Assembly (NCBI GenBank): GCA_963662545.2
Contig: CAXXLL010000003.1
Location: 224,001 to 288,000, forward strand
Length of the DNA stretch: 64,000 bases
Direction of reading: 5' to 3'
From: Gammaproteobacteria bacterium
GTDB lineage: Bacteria > Pseudomonadota > Gammaproteobacteria > Ga0077536
The notes beneath the pieces were generated by a model. The model saw only the letters and a program-made list of their open reading frames with translations, made no database searches and was not told the origin of the DNA. The first letter of the stretch is position 1; each line of letters opens with the position of its first letter. Of the stretch, positions 28,234 through 59,696 are shown one piece after another. A program made the position numbers and the translations under genes.

Positions 28234-28284
28234 GTCAGCGACGATGCAAACCCACGGGCGAAATGCCTAGGCGTCGCACGCCGC

Positions 28285-30584: not shown

Positions 30585-30594
30585 CCGGCCGCCT

Positions 30595-31821: not shown

Positions 31822-32780
31822 GCGGAGGCCCTGAAGAATTCACGGTACCAGGCAATCGTCTCTTCGAGTCCTTCGCGCATCGTGTACAAGGGTTTCCAGC
31901 CGAGCATTTCGCGCGCTTTTTTCGCGCTCAGGTACTGTTTTTGGATCTCGTTACTGACCTCGTTGAGAATTTTCGGGGCTTGGCTACCCTCCATGGCCTC
32001 GACGATCAGCTCTACCAGTTCCTTCACCGTAAACTGACTCTCGTTCGAAAAATTGAAGGCTTCCCCGGCAAGCTCCGGCCGCGCCGCCAATTGCTGGGCC
32101 AGCATGATGTAGGCGCCCACGGCGTCACCGACATAGATGTAATCGCGCACGTACCCGCCGTCCGAGCGGATGATGGGCGGCGCACCGCGGACGATAGAAC
32201 GGATCGAGCCCGGCACGAGCCGGTTCCAATTGAGATCCCCGCCGCCGAAAAAGTTACCGCAGCGCGTGACGACGACCGCTGTGCCGTATGTGTGCGCATA
32301 AGCCTGCGCGATTAGATCCGAGCACGATTTACTGACGTCGTAAGGGTGGCGCCCGGTGAGCGACATGCTCTCGTCATACGGCAGTTCGTCCTTGTCGCCG
32401 TAGGCCTTGTCTGAGGACGCCGTGATGATCTGCTCTACGCTGGGGCTGCGCCGCGCCGCCTCGAGCAGGCTCCAGGTGCCACCGATATTGGACTCGAAGG
32501 TCTCGACCGGATTACGGTTCGCGACTGTAACAATGGTCTGGGCAGCGAGATGAAACACGGTCCTGACTTCGTAATCCCCGAGCATCCGCTCCAGCAACGC
32601 CTGGTCGCGGATGTCGCCGCGCACGCTTCGCACGCGCTCAATAGTCCCGGACCGCACCAACTCACTCTGCGGAACCCAATCCCGCACCAGGGCGACGACA
32701 TCCGCACCCAGCGCATGCAGCGCGGCCACGAGGCTGCTGCCCACCAGCCCCGAGGCGCCCGTTACGAGGACGGCCTGTCC
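31818..32780 (-). pseudogene. rfbG: CDP-glucose 4,6-dehydratase, 3' part (interrupted by the integrative element)
   Basis: [37 protein letters not shown]. No in-frame start precedes the Rossmann motif; the missing N-terminus is at 56670-56747. Confidence 0.88.
32768..32780 (+). repeat. Left att core GGACGGCCTGTCC
   Basis: Matches 56675-56688 with a one-base indel. Confidence 0.8.
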
Positions 32781-32923
32781 GCGTTCGCAACTTCCACGGT
32801 GTTCTGAGTGATGCCAGACTATTCATAAGATTCAATCTGTTCGGTTGACTCTGGTAGCTTGACACGTCCACTGAGTGCTACTACATTCCCACTCGTTGTG
32901 TGGGATCGAATGAGGGTACGACT

Positions 32924-34114
32924 GTGGCAGCCAGACTGACGGCGAGGTTCGCGGCGACGGTGACGAAGCCGGGCCGGCACGGCGACGGCAATGGCCTCTA
33001 TCTGCTGGTCAAGCCGAGCGGCGCGAAGTCCTGGGTTCTGCGAACCGTCGTGCGCGGGCGGCGGTGCGACATCGGACTCGGCGGCTACCCATTGGTCTCA
33101 CTGGCGGAAGCCCGAACGGCGGCTTTCGAGCATCGCAAGCTGGCTCGTGCCGGTGGCGACCCGCTGGCACGCAAGCGGCGACGGGACATACCGACCTTTG
33201 AAGAAGCCGCTCGCATGGTGATCGAAATCCACACACCGACGTGGCGCCCTGGCGGCAAGTCGGCGGAGCAATGGGAGTCCTCGTTGCGGCAATACGCCTT
33301 TCCGCGTCTCGGAGCCAAGTGCGTGGACACGATCACCACGGCGGACGTGATGGTAGTCCTGGTTCCGATCTGGACCGATAAGGCCGAGACCGCCCGCCGT
33401 GTTCGCCAACGCATCAGTGCGATCATGAAGTGGGCGGTCGCACAAGGGTATCGCGCCGACAATCCCGCCGGCGAGGCGATTGCGGCCGCATTGCCGAGAG
33501 TCGGCGACACGCGTCGGCATCTTCGAGCGGTTTATCACGCCCAGGCCGGTGACGCGGTCAGGGCGGTCAGGGGATCGCAGAGTTCGCTCGCGGCACGGCT
33601 GGCGTTCGAGTTCCTGGTTCTGACCGCGGCACGTTCCGGGGAGGTACGGGGCGCTGTGTGGTCCGAGTTCGATCTGGAGGCGGCGGTATGGACGATACCC
33701 GGCGAGCGGATGAAGGGCGGACGCGATCATCGCGTTCCGCTATCGGACCGGGCGCTGGCGCTCCTCGATGAGGCGCGGGCGCTCGATGACGGAAGCGGCT
33801 TGGTGTTTCCGTCGCCGGTCGGGCGCAAGCCGATGTCCAATTCGATGCTTTCCCAGTTGTTGCGCGAACTCGATATCGATGCCGTTCCGCACGGCTTCCG
33901 TTCGACCTTCCGGGACTGGTGTTCGGAATTCGCGCAGGCGCCTGGCGCAGTTGCCGAAGCCTGCCTCGCCCACGTCGTGAAGGGTGTCGAGGGCGCTTAT
34001 GCCCGCTCGGATCTGTTGGACCGCCGCCGCAATCTGATGGAGCGGTGGGCCGCGTATCTAAATCCCGAGCCGGCAACTGTGGTGTCGCTTGACGTGCGGC
34101 GGACGACAAGTTGA
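32924..34114 (+). CDS. Tyrosine integrase, P4-like, with arm-binding domain
   Basis: GRHGDGNGLYL...KSW arm domain; catalytic R (ARSGE), K (MKGGRDH), HGFR, H (LAH), Y (AYARSD). Confidence 0.95.
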   Translation: MAARLTARFAATVTKPGRHGDGNGLYLLVKPSGAKSWVLRTVVRGRRCDIGLGGYPLVSLAEARTAAFEHRKLARAGGDPLARKRRRDIPTFEEAARMVIEIHTPTWRPGGKSAEQWESSLRQYAFPRLGAKCVDTITTADVMVVLVPIWTDKAETARRVRQRISAIMKWAVAQGYRADNPAGEAIAAALPRVGDTRRHLRAVYHAQAGDAVRAVRGSQSSLAARLAFEFLVLTAARSGEVRGAVWSEFDLEAAVWTIPGERMKGGRDHRVPLSDRALALLDEARALDDGSGLVFPSPVGRKPMSNSMLSQLLRELDIDAVPHGFRSTFRDWCSEFAQAPGAVAEACLAHVVKGVEGAYARSDLLDRRRNLMERWAAYLNPEPATVVSLDVRRTTS

Positions 34115-34260
34115 CGCGGTGGGCAGCGATTACCACCCTCTCCCCGGGTGGGAGGACTTTAACGAATGCCGCACGACGGTCCCGGTGCCGGCGACTCCGG
34201 GCGAACCTGCGGTGAGGCCTGAGCCGTTGCGCCCATTGCCTCCGGCAAAACCGCGCAGAC

Positions 34261-35169
34261 GTGAACAAACCTAACACACCGGACACGAGCGTGCCGGCAG
34301 CGGGTGCGGATTTGGATAGGTTCCTGCTCAAGATAACCGGCTTCGCGGCCTTGACGGATTTGTTCTGTACGGGCATGTCCGAGACCGAATCCGAAAGGCT
34401 ATGTTGGGACGCCCAACATTTCGCCTTTCTGGCTTCTAATTACCGAGAGCGTTTCGAGAATGACAAAATCATCCTAAGGCATGACGAAGCCGTGGAGGCC
34501 TACCGACTCTTATCACCGCTTATACGCGCGTCACAGGACCCAATTGTTTATAGCCGGATGATGGTTTCCCGGCTTCTCGATACCGGAGGCTTGGCCCTTG
34601 ACCCTGGCGCCGTAGAGACGCTTCTCCACGAGCATGAGGATGATGCCTGTTTCGAGGGCAAAGAGGCTTGGGACAGATATATAACCCACGAAGCACTCCT
34701 CCTCTCCGTGGAGCGCATAGACCGCAAGGAGCGCACCGAAGCGATCGATCCCGATTGGCGCTGGTTGCGCGATCAGTGCCGAGACGTACTTGAACGCCGG
34801 CCCGTCACTCGCCCACGCGGCGGGAGGCTCGATCCGCGCATTCGCGAACTGCGCGACGCGCTGGTGAGCGCGTACTTGCAATTGTTCGACGGCTGCGGGC
34901 TTACCGTCACTTCCCGGAACGGTGTCTCACTTGCTAGCGCGATGGCAGAGGCGACGGACATCCCCGAAACCACCATCGACAGCATTTGGCGGCGCGCTGG
35001 CGCTGGGGTTGGAGCATTTCCACCGTATCGTGACGATATGCACTCACGGGAGCGATTCGTTACGTGCGCCGGTTGCGGCGCCCCGGTGCCGAAGATTGAC
35101 GCAGGACTCGACTTTGAGTCTGGGCGAGGCGAGCCGCGTTGCGAGTCGTGCCGCGGCCTTCGGGAATAG
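34261..35169 (+). CDS. Hypothetical protein with HTH-like segment and C-terminal CxxC...CxxC zinc finger
   Basis: CAGC...CESC near the C-terminus; lies between the integrase and alpA. Confidence 0.5.
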   Translation: MNKPNTPDTSVPAAGADLDRFLLKITGFAALTDLFCTGMSETESERLCWDAQHFAFLASNYRERFENDKIILRHDEAVEAYRLLSPLIRASQDPIVYSRMMVSRLLDTGGLALDPGAVETLLHEHEDDACFEGKEAWDRYITHEALLLSVERIDRKERTEAIDPDWRWLRDQCRDVLERRPVTRPRGGRLDPRIRELRDALVSAYLQLFDGCGLTVTSRNGVSLASAMAEATDIPETTIDSIWRRAGAGVGAFPPYRDDMHSRERFVTCAGCGAPVPKIDAGLDFESGRGEPRCESCRGLRE

Positions 35170-35266
35170 CACGACCAATTTTATTCTTCGTACCGCGAGC
35201 CGCGGTTCTTCTGTAATCCTCGCGAGCTAAGCCGGTGCCTGGCCGGTCTGAACGAGGATTTCAAAG

Positions 35267-35488
35267 ATGAACAGATTGTTGCGGCGACCCGAAGTCGAAT
35301 CGATCACCGGACTGTCGAGGGCGAGCATCTACGCCAAGATGCAGAAGGGCGAATTCCCCGCACCGGTGCGACTCGGCACCAACTCCGTAGCTTGGCGTGT
35401 AGTCGATATCGAGGCCTGGATTGAGTCCCTTCCTCCGGCGAGGTTTCACAAAGCCGGTTGTAGCGAATCCCGCAAAGCGGCGGAGTGA
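35267..35488 (+). CDS. alpA: AlpA-family regulator/excisionase
   Basis: LLRRPEVESITGLSRASIY...FPAPVRLG...VAW. Confidence 0.92.
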   Translation: MNRLLRRPEVESITGLSRASIYAKMQKGEFPAPVRLGTNSVAWRVVDIEAWIESLPPARFHKAGCSESRKAAE

Positions 35489-35613
35489 AGCGTGGAATGG
35501 GAGTTGTGCCCGGCCGCGGTGCCTTGGTATCGAGAGTTGTGTCGGCGGTGGGCGCTCTGGCGGCGTGCGTCTGCGGCGATCCGTCGGGCTGTTCACGCCC
35601 TCCGGTGTGCCGT

Positions 35614-36570
35614 ATGACCACGCCACAGTTCGACCGGCACGCGCTGCGGGCTGCGCTGCTTGAACGGCTACCGGAATTCGTGCGCGCCTACGCGCCAGCG
35701 GATACCGTAGTCCGCGAGCATGGCCACGAGATCCGCATCGGCCGCAAGGGCTCCATCGCGATTGCGCGCGACCAGGGTCTCTACTTCGATTTCGAGCATG
35801 GGCGTGGCGGTGACGTGCTCGCACTCGCGGCCGAACTCACCGGCGCCCGCGACTTCCCTTCCACGTTGCGCGCCGTGGCCGCGTTCGTTGGTGGCGTACC
35901 GATGCCGGCATCGCGTGACCGCACGCGGCGAAGCCGGCCGAAGACATCATCGACGAACACGCGGGCGGCAGCGCGAAAAATCTGGAAGGCGACCCGTCCG
36001 ATCGGCGCGACACTCGCCGCCGCGTACCTCGATGCACGTGGTGTCGAACACGTCGCCAGCGCTGCAGCGCTTCGCTTCCATGCGAGCCTCTCGCATCCCA
36101 ATGGACCGGGAGGCTTTCCAGCGCTAGTGGCGGGTGTCCAGGACGTGAGCGGGCGATTCCTTGGTATCCAACGCACGTACCTCCATGGGTCGCATAAGGC
36201 AGCCGTGGAGCCTGTACGCGCTTCGCTCGGAAGCCTCGCCGGTGGTGCGGTGCGGCTTGGCGAGCCGGTAGCGGGCCGGCTGCTGATTGGTGAGGGAATC
36301 GAATCGACGGCGGCGGCGATGCGCGTGCTCGACTGGCAGGGCGGCGCATGGGCGACGCTCGGCACGTCCGGACTGCGCGCCGTAGTATTGTCCGCTGAGA
36401 TTCGTGACGTGGTGATTGTGGCGGATCGCGATGCGAACGGCGCAGGCCAGCTTGCGGCGGCGGCGCTCGCCTGGCGGCTCGAAGCCGAAGGCCGCGTGGT
36501 CGAAATCGTCATTCCGACCGTGATTGGGCATGACTTTGCCGACGAGTTGAAGGCATCCCGCGATGCCTGA
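35614..36570 (+). CDS. Toprim-domain primase-like protein (DUF7146/Toprim_3 type)
   Basis: DFEHGRGGD, YLDARG, GIQRTYL, GEGIES, ADRD, DFAD. Confidence 0.85.
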   Translation: MTTPQFDRHALRAALLERLPEFVRAYAPADTVVREHGHEIRIGRKGSIAIARDQGLYFDFEHGRGGDVLALAAELTGARDFPSTLRAVAAFVGGVPMPASRDRTRRSRPKTSSTNTRAAARKIWKATRPIGATLAAAYLDARGVEHVASAAALRFHASLSHPNGPGGFPALVAGVQDVSGRFLGIQRTYLHGSHKAAVEPVRASLGSLAGGAVRLGEPVAGRLLIGEGIESTAAAMRVLDWQGGAWATLGTSGLRAVVLSAEIRDVVIVADRDANGAGQLAAAALAWRLEAEGRVVEIVIPTVIGHDFADELKASRDA

Positions 36571-38215
36571 ATCCATGAATTCAACCGAAGCCGCCCGCGA
36601 GGGCACGGTTCGCTCGAAGCTCCCGCCCGAAATTCGGGAACTGCTCGACGCGGCACAGACTGACATCGGAGCGCCGTTGGAGCCGCACGCGGCGGAGATA
36701 CTCCGTAAAGCGCGGTCGGAGGACTTGGCGACCTACGAACGATTTCGAGCCGAATATAGGCGTTGCGGGGGACGTATCAGCGCCCTGGACCAGGCGACGG
36801 CACCGACCGATGGTGAGCATGGTGACGGCGGGCAGGGCCGGCCCATCGAGTGGAACGATCCGGACCCATGGCCGGTGCCGGTCGATGGTGCGGCGCTGCT
36901 CAATGCCCTGTTGGCGCTGTTCGAACGTCACGCCAGCCTGCCCGAAGGGGGCGCCGTGGCCGTGGCCTTGTGGGCGCTCTACGCCTGGTGCTTCCGCGCC
37001 TTCGCCGTGTGCCCCAACCTGATGTTAACGGCGCCGGAACGCGAATCCGGCAAGACCCGTGTTACCGAAATTCTGTCTTGGACGGTCCCTAGAGCGAAGC
37101 CGGTCAGCGACGCATCCGCGGCGGCAATCATTCGCGGTATCGAACGCGACGGCCCGACGCTTCTGTTCGATGAAGCGCAACATTTTTTGCGCCGGCGACC
37201 GGGCGATCCGATCCGCGGAATCCTGCTCGCGAGTTTTACGAAGCGCTTCGCCATCGTCGAGCGGTGCGAGGGCGATGCGCATGAAGTTCGCGCCTTCTCA
37301 ACGTTCTGCCCAAAGGCGCTGAATGGGCGCAAGCTCGCGGCAATCGATGACATGCTCACGTCCCGCTCGGTGGTCGTTCCGATGATGAGGGCGACCAGGC
37401 CGCTTCCGGAATTACGGGTGGATCGCGATCCCGCAGGCGAAGACTTGCGACGCCAGTGCGCACGCTGGCGCGACGACCACCTAGCCGAACTCCGAGAAGC
37501 TGACCCCGACACAGGTGGGCGGATTGGGCGCATCGCGCAAGTCTGGCGTCCGTTGTTCGCCGTGGCGGATGCGGCTGGCGGCGAGTGGCCTAAGAAGGCG
37601 CGAGCCGCCGCGGCCGCGCTTGCGGCAATGGCGGCGACCTTTTCAGACGGTGAAACACTCGGACTGATGTTGCTCACCGACGTGCGAGCCGTGTTCGAGG
37701 AGAAGGGCAACCCGCAGCGCATCGCTTCTAAGGAACTCGACGAGGCGTTACGCGACCTTCCCGAACGGCCTTGGGCTTCGATGCCTAAGACCGGCAAGGC
37801 AATCACGGCGCAAGCGCGCGGGCGGATGCTTGCGAACTACGGTGTCAAGGCGGAAACGCTCCGGTTCGACGATGCGAAAGACGCGAAGGGGTATCGGCGC
37901 GACGCGTTCGAGGAAGTTTGGAGCGCCTACCTTCCCGAAGCGGGCGGTAATGGAACCGTTGAACCGTTGACGGGCCCTGAATCAAGGGATTTCGGCGACT
38001 CGCGAACCGTTGACGGTAATGGCAGGGTCAACGATTCGAAGAGCGCGAAAACCCCTGCACCACAAGGGGTGTCAACGGTTCAACGGTTCGAAAACAGGGG
38101 TGCGGAGGGAAAAGGCACGCCGGAACCGTTACACGAACCGCTCACGTTGCGGCAACAACCGCTTGGCAAGCTGACCGCAGCCGAAACATACCGGCGGGCG
38201 AGCCGCGGCGAGTAG
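36563..38215 (+). CDS. DUF3631-type P-loop replication/helicase-like protein
   Basis: DPWPVPVDG, APERESGKT (Walker A), TLLFDE, ERPW, KGYRRDAF..W..YL. Confidence 0.8.
   Translation: MPESMNSTEAAREGTVRSKLPPEIRELLDAAQTDIGAPLEPHAAEILRKARSEDLATYERFRAEYRRCGGRISALDQATAPTDGEHGDGGQGRPIEWNDPDPWPVPVDGAALLNALLALFERHASLPEGGAVAVALWALYAWCFRAFAVCPNLMLTAPERESGKTRVTEILSWTVPRAKPVSDASAAAIIRGIERDGPTLLFDEAQHFLRRRPGDPIRGILLASFTKRFAIVERCEGDAHEVRAFSTFCPKALNGRKLAAIDDMLTSRSVVVPMMRATRPLPELRVDRDPAGEDLRRQCARWRDDHLAELREADPDTGGRIGRIAQVWRPLFAVADAAGGEWPKKARAAAAALAAMAATFSDGETLGLMLLTDVRAVFEEKGNPQRIASKELDEALRDLPERPWASMPKTGKAITAQARGRMLANYGVKAETLRFDDAKDAKGYRRDAFEEVWSAYLPEAGGNGTVEPLTGPESRDFGDSRTVDGNGRVNDSKSAKTPAPQGVSTVQRFENRGAEGKGTPEPLHEPLTLRQQPLGKLTAAETYRRASRGE
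37953..38089. repeat. Nested inverted iteron-like repeats (candidate replication origin)
   Basis: Perfect 19-bp IR GAACCGTTGAACCGTTGAC (37953-37971 / 38071-38089) enclosing a 12-bp IR with one mismatch (38003-38014 / 38027-38038). Confidence 0.75.
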
Positions 38216-38287
38216 ATGACGCCGGTGCGCCACGACGTCGAATCCATCCCGACGGCATACGGTCGGTATACGGTATAGGAGGAATAG

Positions 38288-39057: not shown

Positions 39058-39073
39058 TTGGAGGAACAACCCC

Positions 39074-40535: not shown

Positions 40536-41517
40536 ATGCCACAAGTCGGACCTCAAGCAGTACTGGTAGTAGAGGACACGCTCGACGATCTAATGCGCGA
40601 GGTAATGTGTCGAATACTTGATAACGGAGCGCAAATTTCACCTAGCAGAGGTAAGGCTAAAGAACTTGTTGGTGTCCTTCTCCAGCTACGAGATACCCGG
40701 GCTCGGATAAGTCTTACAGAGACTCGCGGGAAGCCGTTTAGTGCGTTAGGAGAGTTTTGCTGGTACCTCGCGGGCTCGCGAGATGCCGATTTCATTAGCT
40801 ATTACGTACCCAAGTATCGAGGTATCAAGAGGATGGACAAATATATGGAGCATATGGTCCGAGACTGTTCGATTGGAAGGATACCAATCAACTGAACAAC
40901 GTAATTCAGTGCCTTAGAACTAGCCCTGATACTCGACGAGCTGTTATACAGCTATACGATGCCGTAGATATTGTCCAGTCGCACAAGGATGTTCCTTGCA
41001 TGTTCCTTGCACGTGCACGATCCAATTTTTGGTACGTGACGGATTGCTCAACGTTTTCACAACGATGCGATCTAATGATGCATATCTCGGGCTGCCGCAC
41101 GACATTTTCTGCTTCACAATGCTACAAGAGGTTGTCGCCAATACGTTGTCGCTTCCTGTGGGGATGTACATGCATGCAGTTGGAAGTCTTCATCTATATG
41201 ACGAACATTCGCCCAACGTCTACAAGTATCTCAACGAAGGATGGCAAAGTAGTTGCCCTATGCCCCCAATGCCCAGCGAGGATCCTTGGGAGGCTTTAAA
41301 AGCACTAAAAGTTTTCGAAGAACAGTTACGGAAAAGTGATTCTGTTGACGGTATGCGAGTTCCGGACATTGCGGAATATTGGAAAGACCTAATGAGGCTA
41401 TTGCTCATATTTAGACTGAAAAATGATGGCAACATTAAGGCGATTCGAGACGAAAGAGACCGGATGTACAGCAACGTTCTTCAGATACACGTTGATAAGC
41501 TCGTGTTAGAGGTCTAG
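40536..41517 (+). pseudogene. Thymidylate-synthase-fold enzyme (dCMP/CMP hydroxymethylase-like), split over three frames
   Basis: EFCWYLAG / YGAYGPRL...DTRRAVI...DVPC / MRSNDAYLGLPHD...GSLHLY. Frameshift near 40820 and an 11-bp tandem duplication at 40989-41010. Confidence 0.88.
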
Positions 41518-41571
41518 CGATTAACAATGTCTTAGTGCCGGTAGGAATCATCAGACGGGTGAATTTGAAGC

Positions 41572-42372
41572 ATGCACGACGCAATTGCGATTTTATTGGA
41601 TCGACTAGAGCGTAAACCAGAGCTATCTACGGGCGTCATTGGGTGGGGTAGCCCTGTACCTTCGTTCGGTGACCTAAGTCGTTCTTTTGTGGCGACGCTA
41701 GGGATCAATCCTAGCAACCGCGAATTTGTCGATAATTCAGGCGAAGAACTGACTGGAACTGGGCGTCGCTTCCATACTCTTCAATCGCTTGGTATTGATT
41801 CGTGGAAGGAAGCAAATGCGCGGCACATCCAATTAATAGTCAACTCTTGCCGAGCATATTTCGAAGGGAATCCTTACGATTTGTGGTTCAAGCGCCTAAA
41901 CAATGTTATCGCTGGATCCGGAGCTTCTTACTACGACCAATTTACGCCAGCATGTCACCTGGATCTGGTTCCATATGCAACTATCGAAAAATGGAGCGCA
42001 CTTGAGAAATCTCATAAAACAAAATTGATTGAGGAGAGCTGCGACATACTCGGAAGACTTTTGCGTGACTCTCGCGTTGAACTGTTAATTTTGAATGGTC
42101 GTTCCGTTGTCGACAGTTTTGAAATGCTTATGGAAGCGAAACTCGAACGGAGCGAAATGCCAGAATGGTCGTTGCCAAGGAGTTCAGGCAATCTGGTAAC
42201 TGGGATTGCGTATTCGGGGGCCATAAGCTGTATTGCTGGATTCGATTTGTGTCGTGACATCCAGGTAGTAGGATTCAATCACAATATTCAAAGTAGCTAC
42301 GGTGTGACGACGGAAGTGTGCGATTCGATTAAGAACTGGATCGCTAATGAAACAGCTTGGCGATCGTGGTGA
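41572..42372 (+). CDS. Hypothetical protein, probable uracil-DNA-glycosylase-like fold
   Basis: PVPSFGD, TLGINPS (UDG motif-A-like), HLDLVPYAT, ILNGR, FNHNIQS (motif-B-like). The fold is inferred. Confidence 0.55.
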   Translation: MHDAIAILLDRLERKPELSTGVIGWGSPVPSFGDLSRSFVATLGINPSNREFVDNSGEELTGTGRRFHTLQSLGIDSWKEANARHIQLIVNSCRAYFEGNPYDLWFKRLNNVIAGSGASYYDQFTPACHLDLVPYATIEKWSALEKSHKTKLIEESCDILGRLLRDSRVELLILNGRSVVDSFEMLMEAKLERSEMPEWSLPRSSGNLVTGIAYSGAISCIAGFDLCRDIQVVGFNHNIQSSYGVTTEVCDSIKNWIANETAWRSW

Positions 42373-43307: not shown

Positions 43308-43318
43308 CGACCTCTAAC

Positions 43319-44712: not shown

Positions 44713-44803
44713 AGTCAGAAGTACTGATAGCTAGTATCGCTGTGTCTAAGTAACAGGGCATCGTGACACTGGCATAGGGTATGCTGTGCCCCCCCCGATA
44801 AAG

Positions 44804-45118
44804 TGTCTGACGTCAGCGCCTTTGGGACAAATTGAGGTAATTGCATAACGGAGGATTTCTGGCTCATCGTAGTAACCGAAGGGAACGAAGATGAGACAGA
44901 AATCGATGGATACAAGAGGCAGCGCCGAACAGACGGTTCGGGATATCCGGCGCAAGACGCGCAAGCAGTATTCGGCTGAGGAGAAGATCCGGATTGTCCT
45001 GGCAGGTGTGCGTGGCGAGGACCGCATTGCCGAGCTATGCCGCCGGGCGGGGATCGCCGAGAGTTTTTACTACAGCGGGTCGAAGGCGTTCCTGGAAGTC
45101 GGCAAGAAACGGCTGGCC
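44804..45118 (+). mobile_element. IS3-family left end and truncated orfA
   Basis: Terminus TGTCTGACGTCAGCGCCTTTGGGAC; orfA from 44891 (DIRRKTRKQYSAEEKIRIVL...IAELCRR). Confidence 0.85.
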
Positions 45119-45140
45119 GACTTTTACGCGGCTGTTGACA
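45113..45140. mobile_element. Orphan IS21-like terminal inverted repeat
   Basis: CTGGCCGACTTTTACGCGGCTGTTGACA resembles IS21-family ends (TGTCAAC...GTAAAA). A similar degenerate end finishes at 54161. Confidence 0.5.
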
Positions 45141-45142
45141 GG

Positions 45143-46585
45143 TCAACGAATCACGCTCCAAAACGAGCTCTTCCTTCCATGCTCGCGGCGTAGCCTGGCT
45201 TCATAAGCGTCGTGTGGTTCGTATACCCCGAAATCCTCGATCGCCGATGCCAGACTCGAACACGCCATGAGATGTCGTGCGGCGTGCTTGTATCGACTGG
45301 AGCGGCGGTGTGTCAGCGCGAAGTCGATCATGGAGCGAAACACCAGCGTCGCGGCCAGCGGATACTTGCCGGCCATCGCGTCGGCCGCCGGGGTCAGTAG
45401 CTCATAGTGATTGCCGTCCAGAGCCGCCGCGCTCCGAATAGTGAGCGCGGATGCTCTGTCCAGGGCAGGCCACAACACCAGGAATGACAACGCCCGGAGC
45501 GGGTTCTCGTAGCTCTGCGCATAATCGAGCGCCCGCTCCTCGGCTTCAAAGTCGTCAAAGTCGGGCAGCCGCCTCAGATAGGCACGTAGATGCGGGATCG
45601 ACAACGCTCGCTCGAAGCACGACCAGCGATCCGCCTGGGCCTCGTCGCCGCGGCCGAGTGCATCGAGCACCTCGATCCGTGCGTCCTCCCACGCGAAGTC
45701 CGGCCAGTCCCAGGCATCGTCCCTGTGCTCGGTAGTGTCGAGCGTCTGCAATGCCTCTTCAGCCCTGTCCGCCGCAAGCAACCGCCGGGCGATCTGCGCG
45801 GCAATATTCGGTATTTTTCTCGTTTGCCCGTCATATTGGGCGATGAATGCATCAACATCACCCTGGGCATCCGCAATCTTGGTCAATGCCTGGCGTACCG
45901 TGCTGGCCCGGGACCGTTCGGCCGGTGCGTCGACGTGGTCCGGGCTCCCCGATCCGTGGGTGGCCGTACACCGCTCCCCATCGGACGACTTGCGAACGGA
46001 TTCTTTAGACAGCGTGATCATGCGCTGCTTCAGATGCTCCAGGCCTGCCTGCCCCAGGGCCGGTGCCAGAACCTGGAGCAGGGAGTCGTACTGACCATAG
46101 CCGTTGTCGATCAGCGCTTGGAACGCGTCGTCGGCAAGCCTTTTCGGAGCGGGCCTTGCGGCTTTCGCAATCTCGCCGAGGTCGTTGGCGGCGTGGTCGA
46201 AGATACCGATCACGGTGCCACTACTGTCATCGCAGCGCTCGAATATTGAGCCGGCCAACGCCATGAAACGCCACATCAGGTCGAGTCCCTCGACCGGATC
46301 GTCCTTGGCCACCTTGTCAACGATGGCGCGGCGTTGCATATCCAGATCGTCGACCAAGGTCCGCCGGTTCCGCCAGTCGACGAACGAGCGCGACCTTGCA
46401 ATCGTCGCCAGCCGTTTGCGGATTTCTCGCGCAACTGCGGCGGGGCTTTCCTCACTGGCGAGCTCCAGCCGGAGACGGCGTTTGGCGGTAGTGTTGCCGG
46501 TGCTGATCTCGATCAACAGCTCGGCAAGCCGCTGGGCGCCCAGCGCCTCGAGGTTCTTTGCGTTCAGTGTCTTCTTTGAAGACCT
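45143..46585 (-). CDS. DUF6880-like all-helical protein (start codon apparently AGG instead of ATG)
   Basis: SSKKTLNAKNLEALGAQRLAELL..., RCDDSSG, LPDFDD, HGRKSSFW. Confidence 0.7.
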   Translation of the reverse strand, partial: RSSKKTLNAKNLEALGAQRLAELLIEISTGNTTAKRRLRLELASEESPAAVAREIRKRLATIARSRSFVDWRNRRTLVDDLDMQRRAIVDKVAKDDPVEGLDLMWRFMALAGSIFERCDDSSGTVIGIFDHAANDLGEIAKAARPAPKRLADDAFQALIDNGYGQYDSLLQVLAPALGQAGLEHLKQRMITLSKESVRKSSDGERCTATHGSGSPDHVDAPAERSRASTVRQALTKIADAQGDVDAFIAQYDGQTRKIPNIAAQIARRLLAADRAEEALQTLDTTEHRDDAWDWPDFAWEDARIEVLDALGRGDEAQADRWSCFERALSIPHLRAYLRRLPDFDDFEAEERALDYAQSYENPLRALSFLVLWPALDRASALTIRSAAALDGNHYELLTPAADAMAGKYPLAATLVFRSMIDFALTHRRSSRYKHAARHLMACSSLASAIEDFGVYEPHDAYEARLRREHGRKSSFWSVIR

Positions 46586-47613: not shown

Positions 47614-47616
47614 GCC

Positions 47617-48020: not shown

Positions 48021-48026
48021 CTGGAG

Positions 48027-48824
48027 GGTTCTGTCAGGTTGGCGCCGGATCGCGGACAATTAACGCATGACAGAAGCTCCTAATTATCGCGGATATCGAT
48101 TTCCGCCTGAAATCATCGCGCGGTCGGTGTGGTTGTACCCTCGTTTTACGCTCAGCTTTCGCGATATCGAAGACCTTTTAGCCGAGCGCGGCGTGACGGT
48201 TTCGTATGAAACTATCCGCCAGTGGTGTCTGCCGTTTGGACCCGATTACGCTCGCCGAATTAGGAAACATCAGGGGCCTTGCGGCGACTGTTGGTTTCTC
48301 GATGAGGTCGTCGTCTCAATTCAAGGAAAGCGTCGTTACCTTTGGCGAGCCGTGGACCAAGACGGCGATCTGATTGAGATCCTCGTACAAAAACGCAAGG
48401 ATACTAAAGCCGCTAAGCGCTTCTTTCGAAAGGCGCTACGCTCACAAACAGCCGTTCCTATCGAGATAACAACCCATAAGCTCCGTAGTTACGCCTCAGC
48501 CAAACGCGAGGTAATGCCGTCCGTGCCACACTGCCAAGATCACTATGCGAATAACCGCGCGGAAGTTTCACACGAGCCGACGCGGGAACAAGAAAGGCAG
48601 ATGCGCGGGTTTCGATCGGACGGACACGCGCAGCGCTTTCTAAGCGTCCACGGTCAAGTCAACAATCTGTTTCGCCTCGGTCGTCATCTCCTCAGAGCGA
48701 AGAACTATCGTGAACTACGCTCCAGGGCATTTCTCACTTGGTCGGAGGTGACATGCGCCTGCTGATTGACGATGATTCTACTTGCTCGAAAGATCGGGCC
48801 TGCGCGCAACAACCTGACAAAACC
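48027..48824 (+). mobile_element. IS6-family element (transposase 48067-48765)
   Basis: IRs GGTTCTGTCAGGTT / AACCTGACAAAACC; RFPPEII, WFLDE, YLWRAVDQDG, NNRAE. The second DDE Asp appears to be His (ITTHK). Confidence 0.93.
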
Positions 48825-49023
48825 ACTCCTATATGTACCTTTACACACTAACCCGCACATCCGATGGGGTTCCTTCCGAATTAGCCCACGCACCACGCTA
48901 CGTCACCCTTGTATGAAAATCTAAAGGAACGGTGTTTAACCCGGATAGTAGGGGTAGTAAGCTTTAGGCCAACGAGGTGCCTCAATCTGTCACAAAGTGA
49001 CGGACGAAATAAGGGATCGGAAA

Positions 49024-49719
49024 ATGAAAGTCAGCGCAAAATCTTTGTCCGCAATCCTAATTTTGTTTGCCCTATTTCCCACACCACACGCTGCTGATGA
49101 AGGGTTTTCTACGGACGAGAATTTAAAATGGCTCGGCAATTCAATTGATATAGAAAACAAGGAATTTGTCCCAGGAGAACCAAAGAACGAATTTCAGAAA
49201 GTGATGGGCGAGTTCATGAAAAGTATGATCGAGCAAAACACTAAAACACAGAAAAGCATTGCGCTGATTGGTCCAATCGAGTTCGAGTCAACATCAGATC
49301 TGGCTAACGCCGAGCATATACTGATATTCAGAGAAAATATAACGCAATTCAAAAAAGTCAAAAAATCTCATTACGACACATTGGATATTCTTTTCAAGGA
49401 TGCCAATACCAAAATAGGGAAAACAGATTTAGCAAAAAAACGGCTTGGTGGTAGCGCAGCTTTCTACGAAGAAAAACTGGAATTGTTCTTCCTCTTCGAC
49501 TTAGACAATTATTATAAATTTATCCTCCAAAATCATGACAAGTTCCTTTTCCAAGAAGAGGAAACTATTGTGGCCGACGACAATGTCTTAAAACAATATA
49601 ACGTTTTGAGAGAAAAAATGGTTAGCTCCGCAAACAATATCAATAAGACTCAAGCTCTAAAAAACAATCTGCTCAAAGACAGAATAGATGAACTACAGGA
49701 TTGGGCTAGCGAAAACTAG
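49024..49719 (+). CDS. Hypothetical exported, AT-rich helical protein
   Basis: Signal peptide MKVSAKSLSAILILFALFPTPHA; lies between two IS6 copies. Confidence 0.65.
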   Translation: MKVSAKSLSAILILFALFPTPHAADEGFSTDENLKWLGNSIDIENKEFVPGEPKNEFQKVMGEFMKSMIEQNTKTQKSIALIGPIEFESTSDLANAEHILIFRENITQFKKVKKSHYDTLDILFKDANTKIGKTDLAKKRLGGSAAFYEEKLELFFLFDLDNYYKFILQNHDKFLFQEEETIVADDNVLKQYNVLREKMVSSANNINKTQALKNNLLKDRIDELQDWASEN

Positions 49720-49842
49720 AAACGTTGAAGCAGCAAGGAAAGGGGGTGGGTGTGACAAAGCACATTGGTTCGACAATCGCTCTTGTTTTGGGAATTTTGC
49801 TTGTAGTCGCTGGCCTTAGCCAACTTAACGACAGATTTATAT

Positions 49843-50098
49843 GGTTCTGTCAGGTTGGCGCCGGATCGCGGACAATTAACGCATGACAGAAGCTCCTAAT
49901 TATCGCGGATATCGATTTCCGCCTGAAATCATCGCGCGGTCGGTGTGGTTGTACCCTCGTTTTACGCTCAGCTTTCGCGATATCGAAGACCTTTTAGCCG
50001 AGCGCGGCGTGACGGTTTCGTATGAAACTATCCGCCAGTGGTGTCTGACGTTTGGACCCGATTACGCTCGCCGAATTAGGCAACATCAGGGGCCTTGC
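49843..50098 (+). mobile_element. Truncated second IS6 copy
   Basis: Nearly identical to the sequence from 48027 onwards, then cut by IS256. Confidence 0.9.
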
Positions 50099-51484
50099 GA
50101 GTTATTGTCAAAAGTGGTGTTCAGGCGGTTGAATCAAGCGGCGACCTGATTGACCCTTGTCACCTCGATACCATCTTCAAATTTAACTCCAGTAATCACC
50201 TTGGCCAGGTAGTCGAATCCACGTAGGCGTCGCCAATTCTTCTGCGCACACCGCCCCAGCTTGAACATCATATGGAGCATGCCGTCCCGAGAGAGACCGC
50301 CCTTGGAGCGCCGGGTCCGGTGCCGGATCGTAGCGAAGGTGGATTCAATCGGATTGCTCGTGCGAATGCTTTGCCAATGTGGTGCCGGAAAATCATAGAA
50401 CGCCAGCAACTCCTCACGGTCTTTCTGTAGGCACAGGGTCGCCTTGGGATACTTCGGTTCATAGGTCTTGAGGAACAGCTCGAACGCCTTCTCGGCGTCG
50501 GCCTTTGTCGCGGCCTGCCAGATCGCGTGCAGGGCTTGCTTGGCTTTGGCCTGTGCCGACTTCGGTAGGCAGTTCAGCACGTTCATCGTCTTGTGCATCC
50601 AGCAGCGTTGCTGGCGGGTCTCACCGTAGACTTCCTCCAGTGCGGCCCAGAAGCCCATGGCACCGTCCCCGATCGCCAGCTTGGGAATATTCATCCCGCG
50701 TGACTTCAATTTCAGCAACACCTCGCGCCAGCTCTGCGTGGACTCCCGCACACCATCCTCCATCGCCAAAAAACGCTTCTCGCCTCGCTCATTGACGCCG
50801 ATCACCACCAACGCACACAGCTTCGTGTGCTCCGCCCGCAGGCCACTGTAGACACCGTCCGCCCACACCTACACCCAGCGGTCTTGGTCCAATCGCCCCT
50901 CGCACCAGTCGCGGTATTCTTGCGCCCACACCTGCTTCAAGCGCGACACGGTGCTCGCCGACAGGCCCTTCGCCTGCGGCCCCAACAAAACTTCCAGCGC
51001 AGCGCCCATTTCGCCACTGGAAACGCCCTTCAAATACAGCCACGGCACGGCCGCCTCCAAGGTTCTTGTCTTGCGCACATACGGCGGCACCAGCGCTGAA
51101 CGGAAGGTCACCGGCTCGCCGAGCTTCGAACGAACCTTCGGGATCCTCACCGTCACCGGCCCCAAGCCCGTCTGCAACTGGCGTTCCGGCAAATAGCCGT
51201 TGCGAACCACACCTGCTTTGTCGTCCGCCGTGCGATGTCCTGAATACTGCGCCATATATTCTGCCAGCTCGATTTCAACCGCTCGTTCAATCAGAGCCCG
51301 AGCACCGTTTCTCAAGACCTCCGTCAACGGATCTGGTATTCCTTCTCGACCTGATAATTCAACAACCTTACTCTCTCTCATGGTGGCGTATCCTCTTTGG
51401 TTGGCTTGCTGCTTGGTAACAACATTTCAACCAGATACGCCGCCTTTATTCAATTCGCTCAAACACCAGATTCAGTTATAACTC
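50099..51484 (-). mobile_element. IS256-family element; transposase 50134-51381 with internal TAG at 50869-50871
   Basis: Imperfect IRs GAGTTATTGTCAAAAGTGGTGT / ACACCAGATTCAGTTATAACTC; RNGY, WADGVY, QRCWMHK, RTSNPIES. Confidence 0.93.
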
Positions 51485-51772
51485 GGTCAAGGGGCGAGAG
51501 CGGCTAGCGCATCGGCGGTTCCAGCGGTATCGTTGAAGCGTAACTGGGAGAGATCAAGTGAAATGCTGTTCAGGCACGCTTTTGGCGATTTTCGTCGCGC
51601 TGTCGTCAAATGGTTGCGTCGCGGAAGAGAAAGGACAGACCACCACACCCTTGGGAGCCCCATACGTTCTTGGCGACACATCGTATCCGGCCTATTGGCT
51701 TCGGGTACGTCGTCTACTGGCAGGACTCGCCGACGAAACAGCCCAGCAATATCTGCAGCTAGCGAGAGTGAA

Positions 51773-52342
51773 ATGGAATTTCGGCTGACCTACGCAGGAA
51801 AGTTGCTTTCGCACAAGGGAGGTCGGTCAGGACATGTTCACGACATCCGCCAGAAGTTCCATGAGCAACTCAAAATCCTTTGGCACGAGCATCCGGTTTT
51901 GAAGCGTGGCTATCCCTCAGGGTCAAACATTCCAGATCCCGAAACAATGTGGGGGGAAACCTTCCGCGTGAAAGAATACAACTGGAAGCCAATCGTCGCA
52001 GAAAACAATGGCTTAATTTGCGCACTGAACATTTTGATGCTTCGCAAGGGTCCGCCGGGGAAAGTCCGGACGGACATCGACAACCGTCTCAAGACACTTT
52101 TCGATGCCTTACGCGTTGCGAGTCCTGACCAATTGGGGACGGAATCACCAAAGCCAGGGCAGGATCCGTTTTACGTAGTGTTGCAAGATGACCGTCTCAT
52201 AACCCACGTAGGGGTAACTTCCGATATGTTGCTCGAGCCGGTCGAGGGGGTAGAGCGGGAGGACGATGCGGTACGACTTATGATCGATGTCACCGTTCGG
52301 CCCTACAAGGTCACGTGGGAAAATCTGGACTTTGCTGGCTAG
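51773..52342 (+). CDS. RusA-like endonuclease
   Basis: DIDNRLKTLFDAL matches the RusA DxDNxxKxxxDAL motif, followed by LQDDRLI. Confidence 0.65.
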   Translation: MEFRLTYAGKLLSHKGGRSGHVHDIRQKFHEQLKILWHEHPVLKRGYPSGSNIPDPETMWGETFRVKEYNWKPIVAENNGLICALNILMLRKGPPGKVRTDIDNRLKTLFDALRVASPDQLGTESPKPGQDPFYVVLQDDRLITHVGVTSDMLLEPVEGVEREDDAVRLMIDVTVRPYKVTWENLDFAG

Positions 52343-52346
52343 CTAG

Positions 52347-54041
52347 TGTCCGTCCATAAACAGGCATTTTCTTCGATGGGCACGGAGAAATCGAGGTGTT
52401 GAAAGTAGGTTGTTGGAGCGGTAGCGGCGGTTCGGTGGGGGTCGAAGGGCTCTTCGAGCGTAATTGTGAGTACGTTCGCCGGCCGCAGAGCGCTGCAACC
52501 CAAAGTCGCCCGTTCGACGATATCGAGGAGGTCAGTTAGTGCGAGTGAACGTCGCTATTCGAGTTGATAGCGCGCGAGCAGGCTGAGGTTGTAGGCGACC
52601 ACAGAAGACCACACGTAGGCTTCGAAGTGCGGCAGGCTCTTCCAGGTGCAACGTGCCAATCCGTATGCACGCTTCAGGCAGGAGATACCGGCCTCGATGC
52701 CGGCGCGGAAGTTGCGCAAGCGTCGATAGACCCACTGACTCTTGACCATGTCGGCGATCGCGAGCCCGCGCTTCTTGTGGAAGGCAACGTCTTCGATGCC
52801 TTCTGCTTTCGCCGCCCGGAGATTGTCGAGGCTCGCATAGCCGCCATCGGCGGCGACCTGTCGTGGCATCGTCCCGTAGTGTGTTCGATGCCGTTCGAGC
52901 ATCGGCATGAAGCGCTGACTATCGACCGGATTGCCTCGCTCGATGACCACGTCGAGGATGAGGCCACTGCGCCCCGAAGCCAGATTGATTTTGTGTCCGT
53001 ACTGAACGTCGCGCGCACCCTTTATGATGATGTCGGTATGCGGCTCGAACAAGCTCACGCACTTCTCGCTCGCGGGGACCTTCTCACCGCCGAACACCCG
53101 CCGCTCAGTTTGCGAAATCACCTGCAGAACAAGTGTTTCGTAGTGCGCTACCTGCGCTAGCCAGTCCGGCAGTTCAACGCCGGTGACGCCCGGGCTCAGC
53201 AGCTGCTCACGTACCCTCGCTACCGCTTCCAAGGTTGAACGCGTCGCCCCAATCAAATCGCGATACAGACGTTGGCGTTGCTTCGCACCACGCGCATACC
53301 ACAGCGCCCGCGCACGCTTCTTCGCCAATCGAGTGTGGTTCACGAAGCACAACTCCGGCGCGCCAGGCAACTCGCGCGCCTGTGCGAGCAGACGAACCAC
53401 AACACGCACGCCATCCCACAGCAGATGACTGTCGCTCGGCGCGTGGATGGCACTGTCCGTTACCGTGCTATCAATCCGTACACGCTGTGCCGGCTCAATG
53501 CGCGTCTCTTTCGCCGTCGCCAGCAGGGCGCGATGAATAGACTCCCACGTCGATACCTGGATCGCCGAGACCACCCGCTGTAAGGCAGACTTCTTCGGAC
53601 GTTCATTACCCGGCAACCGGGCGAAGGCCTGAAAGCTCGCCGAGTCCTGCAGGTGAAAGGCCAGCTCCTCGTAACTCAATTGCCGGTGCTGCTTGAGCAC
53701 CGCGCAGCGCAGCACCGACTCCGCCGACAGTCCGCGTCGACCGGTGGGCTTCAAACCCCGCCGACACAGATCGTTCATGACCGGCGTGAGGACCTTGGGG
53801 TGAGCATCGAGCCACTCGGACATGCCCTGCAGCTCTCGCCCCAGGTCATGGTCAGCAAACAGCTCGTATATACTCGCTTGGGCCGTGCGTTTCTGACGCA
53901 TTCCCCCTCCTGTGGTGTCGATGATTGTGTGGAAAATCAGAGGTTTGAAGTTCCATTAGATCACGACCCACCGGAGGTTTCGATCCCTTAAGCGACAAAT
54001 TTTCCTTTTTATTTCAACCGCATCGCGTTTAGGGATGCACA
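52347..54041 (-). mobile_element. ISNCY/IS5-like element, transposase 52555-53901
   Basis: IRs TGTCCGTCCATAAAC / GTTTAGGGATGCACA flanked by CTAGCTAG on both sides; RIDST, ADGGY, RAGIEAGIS.LKR. Confidence 0.9.
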
Positions 54042-54360
54042 CTAGCTAGTCTGCTTGGCGCCTCAGCGCAAAGGTAGCCTACCCCCGAATCGGATAAACC
54101 GAGCTACGCTCCTCGACCCCAAGGGCCGCGGCGGCGGTACATCGTCCCGCCGCTGTTGACACGAGACCGGTGGGAACGAAAATGAGACAGACATCCTCCG
54201 TTATAAAAACCTCTCAGAGTGTCCAATGGACGCTGGCGTCGGACAGGCCGAGGCAACAGGGCCGCTTCACCACGGGTGAACTTCACCGTCCGAGTCGATG
54301 CAGCGTGAACGGCAAACGCGGACGCCAGTCGTGTGCGTGCACCAATGGCAATCGGGTGCC

Positions 54361-55371: not shown

Positions 55372-55812
55372 GCTCCTTGTCGTTTATTGCTTGGGTGCAT
55401 CGAAACAGATCCAAATCTCACCATCCAAAGCCGCTGCTTGAACTGTCAAAAGCAAGCGACTTGACATTAACCAAAGTTCGCCAGATCGTCCATTGAACCA
55501 GCAAGTCAACTGGCCCAAATAGCTTGATGACGGTCGGTATGGACTTCTAGTCAGGTGTAACGCGAACCACCGTCGATAATAATAGCCCCCAGGTGATCAG
55601 CGCGTTTGCTTTCTCCGAGATGCCGGCGTTCTCGCGATCGTCGATGACGGCCCTAGGATGGGACAGCCCCCGCCAGACCTTTAAGCAAGCCGTGAACTCG
55701 ACCACCGCCCTCGCCGATGGTGACCCGGAATAGCACGCGCTCGGCTGGTCCCAGAGCACACCGTCTCCGTTGCCATAGCGCAAAAGGGATAGGCGGGATG
55801 GCCCCACGTGAC

Positions 55813-56340
55813 TGGAGTTGCCCCGTTTCCGTGGACGGTATAGCGCTTGGGTTTCAAGCAGCCTGTTGATAATTATTTTCATAGTTTAGCGGTGATTGCT
55901 GACCGAGGGATGAGTGACGACGGTGCGGGTTGTACCAGCCTTCGATGAACTCGAAGATCGCCATCTTCGCTTCGGCCTGCGTCTTGAAACTGTGGCGGTC
56001 GATGAGTTCGCATTCGAGCGTCGCGAAGAAGCTCTCGGCCATCGCGTTATCGTAGCAATCGCCGACCGATCCCATCGACGGTCGCACACCCATTAACTGG
56101 CAGCGCTTGCCGAAGGCGAACGAAGTGTACTGACAGCCCTGGACTGTGATGGATCACATTCTTCGGTCGACGCTGCCATAGCGCCATATTAAGCGCATCG
56201 AGCACGAGCTCAGTGCGCAGATGCGTCGCCATCGACCAACCGGCCACGCGCCGGCTGAAGGCATCCACGCCACCGCAAAATAGACGAATTCCGCCCAAAT
56301 CAGCACCTAGGTGGCGTCGGCGACCCGCAGCTGATCCGGA
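55813..56340 (-). mobile_element. Degenerate IS3-family right-end remnant
   Basis: GDCYDNAMAESFFATLECE...YNPHRRHSSLG; terminus TGGAGTTGCCCCG; frameshifted upstream. Confidence 0.85.
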
Positions 56341-56669
56341 CATGGCGACACGAACCGACGCTCGACGGAATTCGGTGCCGGTCGGCCGGCACGACTGGCT
56401 AGCGCTCGGGGACATCGAGAACACAAGGGTCAGTGTCGACGTCGCTTCGGCATGATGGCCGGACACACCTATATCTGGTAGGACGAGGCTTTTGAGCGGC
56501 CAAGGTTCCACGCCGAACAAAAGGTAGCACCGTTCATCATAAGTGCGGATTGTCTCCAGAATGCTTTCAACGTCCCACTCGTTCTCGATCACATGGTGGT
56601 AATGAATGTGGGATCGAAAAGGGGTTTCTCAATTAAATACGATAAAAATTAATCATTTATGGATACTTA

Positions 56670-56747
56670 TTAGCGGACCGGCCTGTCCTGCCACAGAGAG
56701 CGATCGCCCACTGCGGAGAGAACGCGGTTCAGGTCCAGAGCCGCCAT
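56670..56747 (-). pseudogene. rfbG: CDP-glucose 4,6-dehydratase, 5' fragment (MAALDLNRVLSAVGDRSLWQDRPV)
   Basis: ATG overlaps the rfbF end. WQDRPV continues in frame into [10 protein letters not shown] at the left junction once the element is removed. Confidence 0.8.
56675..56688 (+). repeat. Right att core GGACCGGCCTGTCC
   Basis: Direct repeat of 32768-32780. Confidence 0.8.
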
Positions 56748-59638: not shown

Positions 59639-59696
59639 AGGTGCTGCGAATCAATCACTTTCAGAAAGGCGGCAGAAACCGTCTTTGAGTACATAA

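Follow-up and report, generated by a model that had tools for sequence, protein, structure and literature searches.

Does a mobile island that splits a surface-sugar gene act as a reversible 'switch', or has it simply inactivated the gene into which it moved? The question is raised by a 64,000-nucleotide stretch of DNA (here termed 'the window') from a Gammaproteobacteria bacterium of the lineage Ga0077536 (assembly GCA_963662545.2, contig CAXXLL010000003.1, positions 224,001 to 288,000 of the forward strand), in which a 23,907-base-pair (bp) integrase-bearing island interrupts an rfbG-like nucleoside diphosphate (NDP)-hexose 4,6-dehydratase gene. An initial annotation of this DNA had proposed that excision of the element would rebuild the gene, and had offered two readings: a reversible, excision-controlled switch, or an insertion at a secondary site that knocked out a sugar branch. 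The evidence gathered here is probably best explained by a recent and still polymorphic insertion of a non-autonomous island at a chance dyad in the gene, with loss of a cytidine diphosphate (CDP)-sugar branch; a dedicated, evolved on/off switch is not supported, and no sign of such a device was seen.

An intact allele of the interrupted gene

The rfbG-like gene lies on the minus strand and is interrupted between codons 30 and 31 (Pro30/Val31). Its 5' fragment (56679-56768) comprises 30 codons when counted from a GTG at 56768, or 23 from an ATG at 56747; the GTG, seven codons upstream of the ATG, is the start chosen by gene callers in intact homologues. The reading frame of this fragment continues into island DNA and is terminated there by a double TAA (56667-56672), such that translation from the ATG gives MAALDLNRVLSAVGDRSLWQDRPVR followed by two stop codons. 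The 3' fragment (31818-32771, minus strand) contains 317 stop-free codons, and its match to the Pfam families Epimerase and GDP_Man_Dehyd starts at profile position 1. The first 30 codons of a sugar-nucleotide 4,6-dehydratase gene are thus cut off from the part that encodes the start of the Rossmann fold.

A public protein of 347 amino acids (P0123) corresponds exactly to the fusion of the two fragments (residues 1-30 and 31-347, respectively), with 0 mismatches in 347 positions. The split is thus real, and very close relatives have the gene in intact form. P0123 was found within a cluster of 347-amino-acid public proteins and is encoded on five contigs of up to 5.81 Mb in length, which come from NCBI, Logan and ENA; another member of the cluster, P0124 (308 amino acids), is a truncated gene call on the window's own contig (2,974,394 bases). 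The island proper (32772-56678) is all that must be removed in order to yield the P0123 reading frame. That the gene begins behind rfbF at 56747 and resumes at about 32770 had been read from the DNA initially and is borne out by both the sequence and P0123, which also contains the in-frame junction predicted at that time (LWQDRPVLVTG); the limits then assigned to the element (32768 and 56688) each lie within 10 bp of the actual junctions. Orthologues in three related genomes, at 54-57% identity, have equal spacing across this region (FWRGRSVLVTG, FWRDRNVLVTG).

Apart from the split itself, the two fragments show no mutation when compared with the intact allele, and the insertion event must therefore be very young. 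A second rfbG orthologue was not found in the genome, where the next-best match is 29% identical, and for that reason the insertion should abolish the CDP-6-deoxyhexose branch of the surface glycan in those cells that carry it.

Unequal cores at the two junctions

Each end of the island falls within a short dyad. In plus-strand letters, the integrase-side core (32766-32782) reads GAGGAC-GGCCT-GTCCGC, corresponding to a host arm, a 5-bp spacer and an island arm, and the far-side core (56673-56690) reads GCGGAC-CGGCCT-GTCCTG, corresponding to an island arm, a 6-bp spacer and a host arm. A dyad results when either the host site or the island site is rebuilt, in agreement with the initial annotation, in which the inequality of the spacers (a single C, present at the far end and missing beside the integrase) was not discussed.

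This one-base difference matters for the fate of the gene. The host dyad overlies codons 28-33, where the 6-bp spacer encodes Arg-Pro of the intact protein, and an in-frame rfbG requires the 6-bp version. Strand exchange anywhere within the 9-bp identity shared by the two cores (GGCCTGTCC) would keep the 5-bp spacer in the chromosome and leave the gene with a -1 frameshift. Recovery of the frame would require either an exchange on the left side of the extra C or, after formation of a heteroduplex, segregation of the appropriate strand. The statement that excision rebuilds the gene is therefore correct for an exchange of the former kind and incorrect for one within the identity. Judged from the cores, excision is plausible, with restoration of the frame predicted in only some events.

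The integrase, its paralog and its relatives

The island's integrase (32900-34114, plus strand; 404 amino acids) is intact and contains, in order, the Pfam domains Arm-DNA-bind_3 (PF13356, E value 5.8e-20), Phage_int_M (PF22022, 8.1e-26) and Phage_integrase (PF00589, 1.3e-13), an arm-binding, central and catalytic architecture that we take to be that of the P4 / CP4-57 integrase family; the NCBIfam integrase domain model PRK09692 matches it at 157 bits, against a cut-off of 434. In an alignment of 10 integrases, the residues R, K, HxxR, H and Y, which we take to be catalytic as in the family at large, are kept in both the window's enzyme and its paralog, within the motifs ARSGE (Arg), ERMK (Lys), HGFRSTFR, LAHV and AYARSD. 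A promoter-like site precedes the gene in a promoter scan (32859-32887). The island also encodes an intact AlpA-family DNA-binding protein of 73 amino acids (35267-35488, plus strand; PF05930, E value 4.5e-19, profile positions 2-51 of 51), which is a likely excisionase or regulator. That the integrase and alpA appeared intact had been noted initially, and the alignment and Pfam matches confirm it.

A second island in the same genome, of about 40.5 kb (C3:2123175-2163732, the left part of which is locus L021), encodes an integrase that is 92% identical to that of the window. The near and far ends of this paralogous island are homologous to the ends of the window island, and its junctions (GCGGAC-GACGC-GTCCGC and GCGGAC-GACGC-GACCGC) display the same arms around a different 5-bp spacer. 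The sequence shared between the two islands, which includes a 2.7-kb segment at 95% identity, starts only at the core and not in the host flank. The paralog sits in the last codons of coxG (PF06240, E value 3e-35), where its insertion swaps the C-terminal residues TA of the gene product for a tail of nine residues. The possibility that coxG is the primary site of the clade was considered and rejected, as coxG lies beside the integrase in 0 of 55 related loci collected by a scan of one genome per species.

In the four closest relatives with a readable junction (integrase identities of 83, 82, 79 and 79%), the corresponding core lies as far upstream of the integrase as it does in the window and consists of G-N-GGA(C/G) and GTCC(G/T)C around a 5-bp spacer. 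A 5-bp spacer is thereby found at 6 of 6 integrase-side junctions (the window island, the paralog and four relatives). The host sides of the relatives' junctions are varied: one lies 19 nucleotides (nt) past the stop codon of a UDG-family gene, two lie at different positions in IS6 transposase genes, and one lies in an unknown open reading frame (ORF). An unoccupied IS6 copy in the genome of one relative (GAGGAC-AACGC-GCCCTC) also has a 5-bp spacer; this copy (G043:C1:1119385) had been a candidate for a relative's second junction, proved to be a complete IS6 and served as an example of an empty site. Far-side junctions were not recovered for the relatives, either by comparison of the window's far 291 bp with the four genomes (those of loci L027, L038, L052 and L068), which gave BLAST matches at chance level only (best E value 0.098), or with 12-nt patterns of left arm plus spacer, which retrieved the known integrase-side junctions and unoccupied IS6 copies and no second junction. 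In one of these relatives (L038, 79% identical) the island occupies an IS6 transposase gene and the integrase is frameshifted (6001-7186, with four stops in a straight translation); that island is probably immobile.

The targets of the closest integrases are thus all different from that in the window, with none in rfbG and none in a transfer RNA (tRNA) gene. An rfbG gene lies beside the integrase in 0 of the 55 related loci. No tRNA gene was found in the window, at the paralog or at the five closest foreign loci, and a same-strand tRNA gene occurs just upstream of the integrase in only 9 of the 55 loci, all of them at no more than 58% identity; the habit of P4-type elements of inserting into 3' ends of tRNA or transfer-messenger RNA (tmRNA) genes does not extend to the window integrase. 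The pattern G-N-GGAC/5 bp/GTCC occurs 34 times in the genome on both strands, and 45 times with a 6-bp gap. Reversed-pattern controls occur 112 times (5-bp gap) and 38 times (6-bp gap), and the dyad counts therefore show rarity only, with no excess over chance.

Taken at the level of their sequences, these loci describe an integrase clade that appears to use short dyads and has no dedicated target gene. Its natural site would have a 5-bp spacer, and the rfbG site, the only one seen with 6 bp, would on that account be an off-consensus secondary site. Two features expected of a secondary site are present, in that the target deviates from the usual one and the crossover regions of the left and right junctions (attL and attR) differ, at 5 versus 6 bp. 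Of the two readings offered initially, it is secondary-site insertion with loss of a sugar branch that gains from these observations (other targets in the relatives, a lone 6-bp spacer and no second orthologue).

Close relatives of the integrase were not found in IMG/VR (best match 31%) or among PLSDB plasmids (best match 50.6%). Integrases of 53-61% identity (L028-L047, L051, L053 and L071) occur in metagenome-recovered genomes labelled as belonging to very different phyla, including Gemmatimonadota-type Palauibacter, Bryobacterales/Acidobacteriota, Dehalococcoidia and Gammaproteobacteria, a distribution that suggests a spread of this integrase family across phyla.

Apparently empty and occupied sites in public samples

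Contigs of three public runs (X18, X20 and X21) were aligned to positions 30000-36000 of the window. In 3 of 3 runs, contigs from the rfb side match the window with 0-1 differences in 2,772 nt, and the match ends exactly at 32771. In two of these runs (X20, at a contig depth of 8.6, and X21, at 13.3) the contig runs on for 3051 nt that are unlike the island. A contig of that length that passed directly from 32771 to 56679 would end at 59729 (56679 + 3051 - 1), which is 35 nt into a repeat of about 170 bp (59694-59862); because that repeat is present in well over 100 copies, an empty-site contig is expected to break at this point. Exact island-specific contigs are also present in X20 and X21, at a shallower depth of 2.0-3.3 (contig depths are rough). 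In the third run (X18) the contig terminates exactly at 32771. A contig would be expected to end in this way where the assembly branches because two alleles part at the following base, and this end therefore supports a real 5-bp spacer at the occupied site; it argues against an assembly error in that spacer without proving the point. An empty-site junction was accordingly read, in apparent form, in two of the three runs, and not in X18. An exact search with 31 nt of host flank against JGI metagenome contigs gave 0 matches. Of the raw reads of a Hi-C run (X24), 0 aligned to positions 30000-36000.

Together with P0123, these contigs indicate the coexistence of an empty and an occupied allele among strains that are nearly identical. 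Such coexistence is compatible with either excision or the presence of two lineages.

A proposed mechanism and its alternatives

The favoured explanation, a recent insertion at a chance dyad, can be cast as a series of steps. The island would have been inserted by site-specific recombination, catalysed by its tyrosine recombinase, into a dyad that lay by chance over codons of rfbG. An element attachment site (attP) whose spacer had the 5-bp length found in the relatives would have recombined with the 6-bp site in rfbG, and the staggered strand exchanges would have left a heteroduplex in the overlap. Replication would then have resolved this heteroduplex, to give one daughter with the island-type spacer on the integrase side and the host-type spacer at the far junction, which would account for the unequal spacers now seen. 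The insertion would have removed the nicotinamide adenine dinucleotide (NAD)-binding start of the dehydratase. The island may still excise, with recovery of the frame if the 6-bp spacer stays in the chromosome and a -1 frameshift otherwise.

Several points weigh against this account. The difference between the spacers might reflect a later 1-bp deletion, or an assembly error in a C/CC homopolymer. The 5-bp rule for far ends is drawn from the paralog and one unoccupied IS6 site. Among the contigs listed for the three runs, none crosses the occupied junction, and the continuation in X20 and X21 is read as an empty site from its length and from P0123 only. Finally, coexisting alleles with identical flanks, together with undecayed rfbG fragments, would fit ongoing excision equally well.

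That last point leads directly to the 'switch' proposed initially, which can be developed further: the island would excise and re-integrate in the manner of active lysogeny, possibly under the control of AlpA, so that some cells would produce the glycan with the CDP-sugar and others would not, as a form of bet-hedging against phages or host recognition. Such an arrangement would be served by an intact integrase, AlpA and pair of cores, and the interrupted ORF is otherwise intact, as a switch would demand; neither its fragments (0 mismatches to P0123) nor the neighbouring pathway genes have decayed, and the two alleles seem to coexist within single samples. Precedents are also available, in the SPbeta prophage in spsM (PMC4191935), the comK prophage (PMC7397523) and phiSa3 in hlb (PMC6597384), as far as the available sections of those reports describe them. 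The proposal is nevertheless unlikely. The element family has no conserved pairing with its target (rfbG lies beside the integrase at none of the 55 loci, and the paralog at the end of coxG and the four relatives lie in five other places), the spacing at rfbG is off-consensus, recombination within the 9-bp identity of cores that differ by 1 bp would shift the frame, and the coexisting alleles can simply be two strains.

An opposite view, that the island is an immobilised remnant of a single insertion and that rfbG is permanently dead in this lineage, is also improbable. Excision would in that case be blocked by the mismatched spacers or by damage from insertion sequences (ISs), and there is material for either: the 5-versus-6 mismatch itself, an island into which four or more ISs have inserted and in which a thymidylate-synthase-like gene is split, and a precedent in ICEBs1, for which excision from poorly matching secondary sites falls below 1e-4 in the available part of the report (PMC3715440). 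Set against this are the intact integrase, AlpA and dyad arms, the lack of any further mutation in rfbG, and the nature of the IS copies, which are confined to the cargo and are recent, since they are 97-100% identical to many other copies in the genome.

An assembly artefact, by which the island was misplaced into rfbG through a misjoin at a repeat, is hardly credible despite a very repeat-rich genome and the 95%-identical paralogous segment elsewhere, in view of matching dyad cores at both junctions exactly where the frame breaks, a paralog that is built alike at a different target, three runs whose independent contigs all stop aligning at exactly 32771, and paralog-shared sequence that starts at the core rather than in the host flank.

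A broader and decidedly speculative extension can be added, to which we would assign a low probability. A clade of P4-type integrases that is common in IS-rich, metagenome-derived genomes may have exchanged tRNA targets for short G-N-GGAC/5 bp/GTCC dyads; the central spacer might be rewritten at each hop by segregation of a heteroduplex, and the integrase-AlpA-primase islands would then wander among coding genes, with one of them now cycling in and out of rfbG in a population that is mosaic for its surface glycan, as an island-driven form of phase variation.

Comparison with known systems

A close parallel to insertion at a chance dyad in rfbG is offered by ICEBs1 of Bacillus subtilis, as described in the available sections of the report (PMC3715440). 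ICEBs1 also relies on a tyrosine integrase and a short inverted-repeat, stem-loop-like site, and also inserts into look-alike sites within genes. At such secondary sites its attL and attR crossover regions differ after replication, so that excision proceeds through a heteroduplex and is reduced to 0.04-0.15 of normal or to less than 1e-4. ICEBs1 is a conjugative element with a strong preference for a single tRNA site, whereas the island is without transfer genes and its closest relatives have no primary site in common; in addition, the mismatch in rfbG is a 1-bp difference in length, whereas the ICEBs1 sites in those sections differ by substitutions.

The mutS element of Vibrio resembles the island in bearing an integrase and variable cargo, in lying inside a conserved coding motif of a housekeeping-type gene of Proteobacteria and in orphaning the 5' start of that gene, according to the sections available (PMC5296598). 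In Vibrio splendidus 12B01, excision of the mutS element is imprecise, with 2 bp leaving together with the circle and mutS being frameshifted (PMC5296598, same sections), in parallel to the -1 outcome predicted for rfbG. That excision was measured, whereas excision of the island is predicted from sequence alone. The mutS elements moreover have a dedicated target, one and the same motif being occupied in hundreds of genomes, in contrast to the 0 of 55 loci with rfbG.

The model behind the surface-glycan switch of the initial annotation is SPbeta in spsM of B. subtilis, where a polysaccharide-synthesis gene is likewise interrupted and excision rebuilds the frame (PMC4191935, PMC5499854; available sections of each). 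SPbeta is an active phage whose serine integrase SprA, together with a directionality factor, carries out precise and developmentally regulated excision (PMC4191935, PMC5499854); none of these features is seen for the island. As far as these partial accounts go, the known switches (SPbeta/spsM, the comK prophage and phiSa3/hlb) share a conserved pairing of element and target that the island lacks.

With the P4 / CP4-57 islands, finally, the island has in common the domain architecture of its integrase, an AlpA protein and a primase module that adjoins the integrase. It differs from them in having no tRNA or tmRNA target, and in the absence of psu, sid and delta from Pfam and PHROGs scans.

Gene content of the island

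The guanine-plus-cytosine (GC) content of the island's cargo is 0.41-0.52, versus about 0.60 in the flanks. The 32772 end carries, besides the integrase and AlpA genes, a gene for an unknown protein of 302 amino acids. AlpA is followed by a replication module (35485-38215, plus strand), composed of a primase with DUF7146 and Toprim domains (35485-36570; PHROG 510, 'DNA primase', E value 3.5e-38) and a DUF3631 protein (36563-38215).

A low-GC cargo segment (40536-43307, plus strand) contains the thymidylate-synthase-like gene, broken into two ORFs (40536-40895 and 40996-41517), a gene for an unknown protein of 266 amino acids, and a gene for an aGPT-Pplase3/ADDT thymine-hypermodification enzyme (42357-43307, E value 1.6e-95). 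Phage-type genes for thymine hypermodification are thus carried on an island that is without phage structural genes. The next segment (43319-46516, minus strand) encodes an M78 peptidase (43319-43939), a helix-turn-helix (HTH) partner (43797-44408), two small unknown ORFs and a DUF6880 protein (45143-46516). The gene for the M78 (IrrE-like) peptidase overlaps that of the HTH regulator (43319-44408, minus strand), and the peptidase resembles the PADLOC models PD-Lambda-2_B, RmrA and CapP; a gene for a partner effector was not recognised in the vicinity. A complete defence system was not detected by PADLOC, for which the M78 peptidase was the only match.

Pfam matches delimit an IS cluster (48023-54049), which consists of an IS6 (48023-48824), an IS6 fragment (49843-50099), an IS256/Mutator-type IS with its transposase in two ORFs (50099-51484) and a 1.7-kb DDE_Tnp_1 IS (52339-54049); in all, the island holds at least four IS-derived segments and an rve fragment. 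These elements belong to a massive expansion of ISs throughout the genome, in which the 1.7-kb DDE_Tnp_1 IS is present in more than 60 near-identical copies (some of them in tandem), the 1.39-kb IS256/Mutator-type IS in about 17, and the 0.8-kb IS6 in several. At its far end the island terminates in an AT-rich stretch (56407-56678) that shares 79% identity with the corresponding end of the paralogous island and is likely an attP arm.

The satellite phage P4 is characterised by genes for capsid redirection and control of the helper (psu, sid, delta and epsilon), next to its integrase, AlpA and primase. Neither these P4-satellite genes nor phage structural or conjugation genes were found in Pfam and PHROGs scans of the island's ORFs. 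From its gene content, the island is best described as non-autonomous and partly decayed, with an intact integration module.

The surrounding rfb genes and repeats

Upstream of the interrupted gene lies rfbF, a glucose-1-phosphate cytidylyltransferase gene (56729-57499, minus strand), the stop of which overlaps the start of rfbG. Its product matches NCBIfam TIGR02623 over positions 1-255 of 255 (349.8 bits, against a cut-off of 300.25), as well as Pfam NTP_transferase. The best NCBIfam match of the intact allele P0123 is to TIGR02622 (CDP-glucose 4,6-dehydratase), at 215.2 bits and thus under the cut-off of 278.45; the gene is therefore termed only 'rfbG-like' here, and its exact substrate, presumably a CDP-sugar, is deduced from the adjoining rfbF. 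Homologues at about 70% identity are labelled CDP-glucose 4,6-dehydratase by JGI.

Downstream of rfbG and on the same strand are genes for a sugar C-methyltransferase, an epimerase/reductase, a CmcI/rhamnosyl-O-methyltransferase-family enzyme, an unknown protein of 195 amino acids and an MBOAT acyltransferase, all five being full-length ORFs. The island would part these five sugar-modification genes from rfbF and from any promoter upstream of it; a simple promoter scan found no minus-strand promoter leading from the island into the 3' fragment of rfbG.

The repeat of about 170 bp noted above lies in an intergenic region of the rfb cluster, and its copies are distributed over both large contigs at about 70-95% identity; some pairs are inverted, and it resembles a miniature inverted-repeat transposable element (MITE) or a repetitive extragenic palindromic (REP) sequence. 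Two other short dispersed repeats are found further to the left (12130-12244 and 26720-26850), and public contigs break inside these repeats. A 128-bp segment is duplicated on either side of the rfb cluster (28220-28347 and 58461-58588), at 80% identity and in the same orientation, and one public contig begins at about a copy of it.

Significance

The interruption of a gene by an integrase island is of an already known kind; it is the dyad-targeting clade of P4-type integrases, and the junctions that record a mismatch, that deserve attention. The two alleles amount to a natural on/off pair for one surface-sugar pathway, in the same background with and without a 23.9-kb island, which would permit a direct test of the role of the glycan, be it as a phage receptor, in host recognition or otherwise. 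Should excision be rare or imprecise, the occupied allele would be an ordinary, recent loss-of-function allele. For the integrase family, the locus points to a P4-type group that chooses short dyads within genes rather than tRNA genes, and whose junctions keep a 1-bp record of mismatched recombination. It thereby bears on how the target specificity of integrases drifts, and on how frequently islands cause knockouts, possibly reverting ones, in IS-rich genomes.

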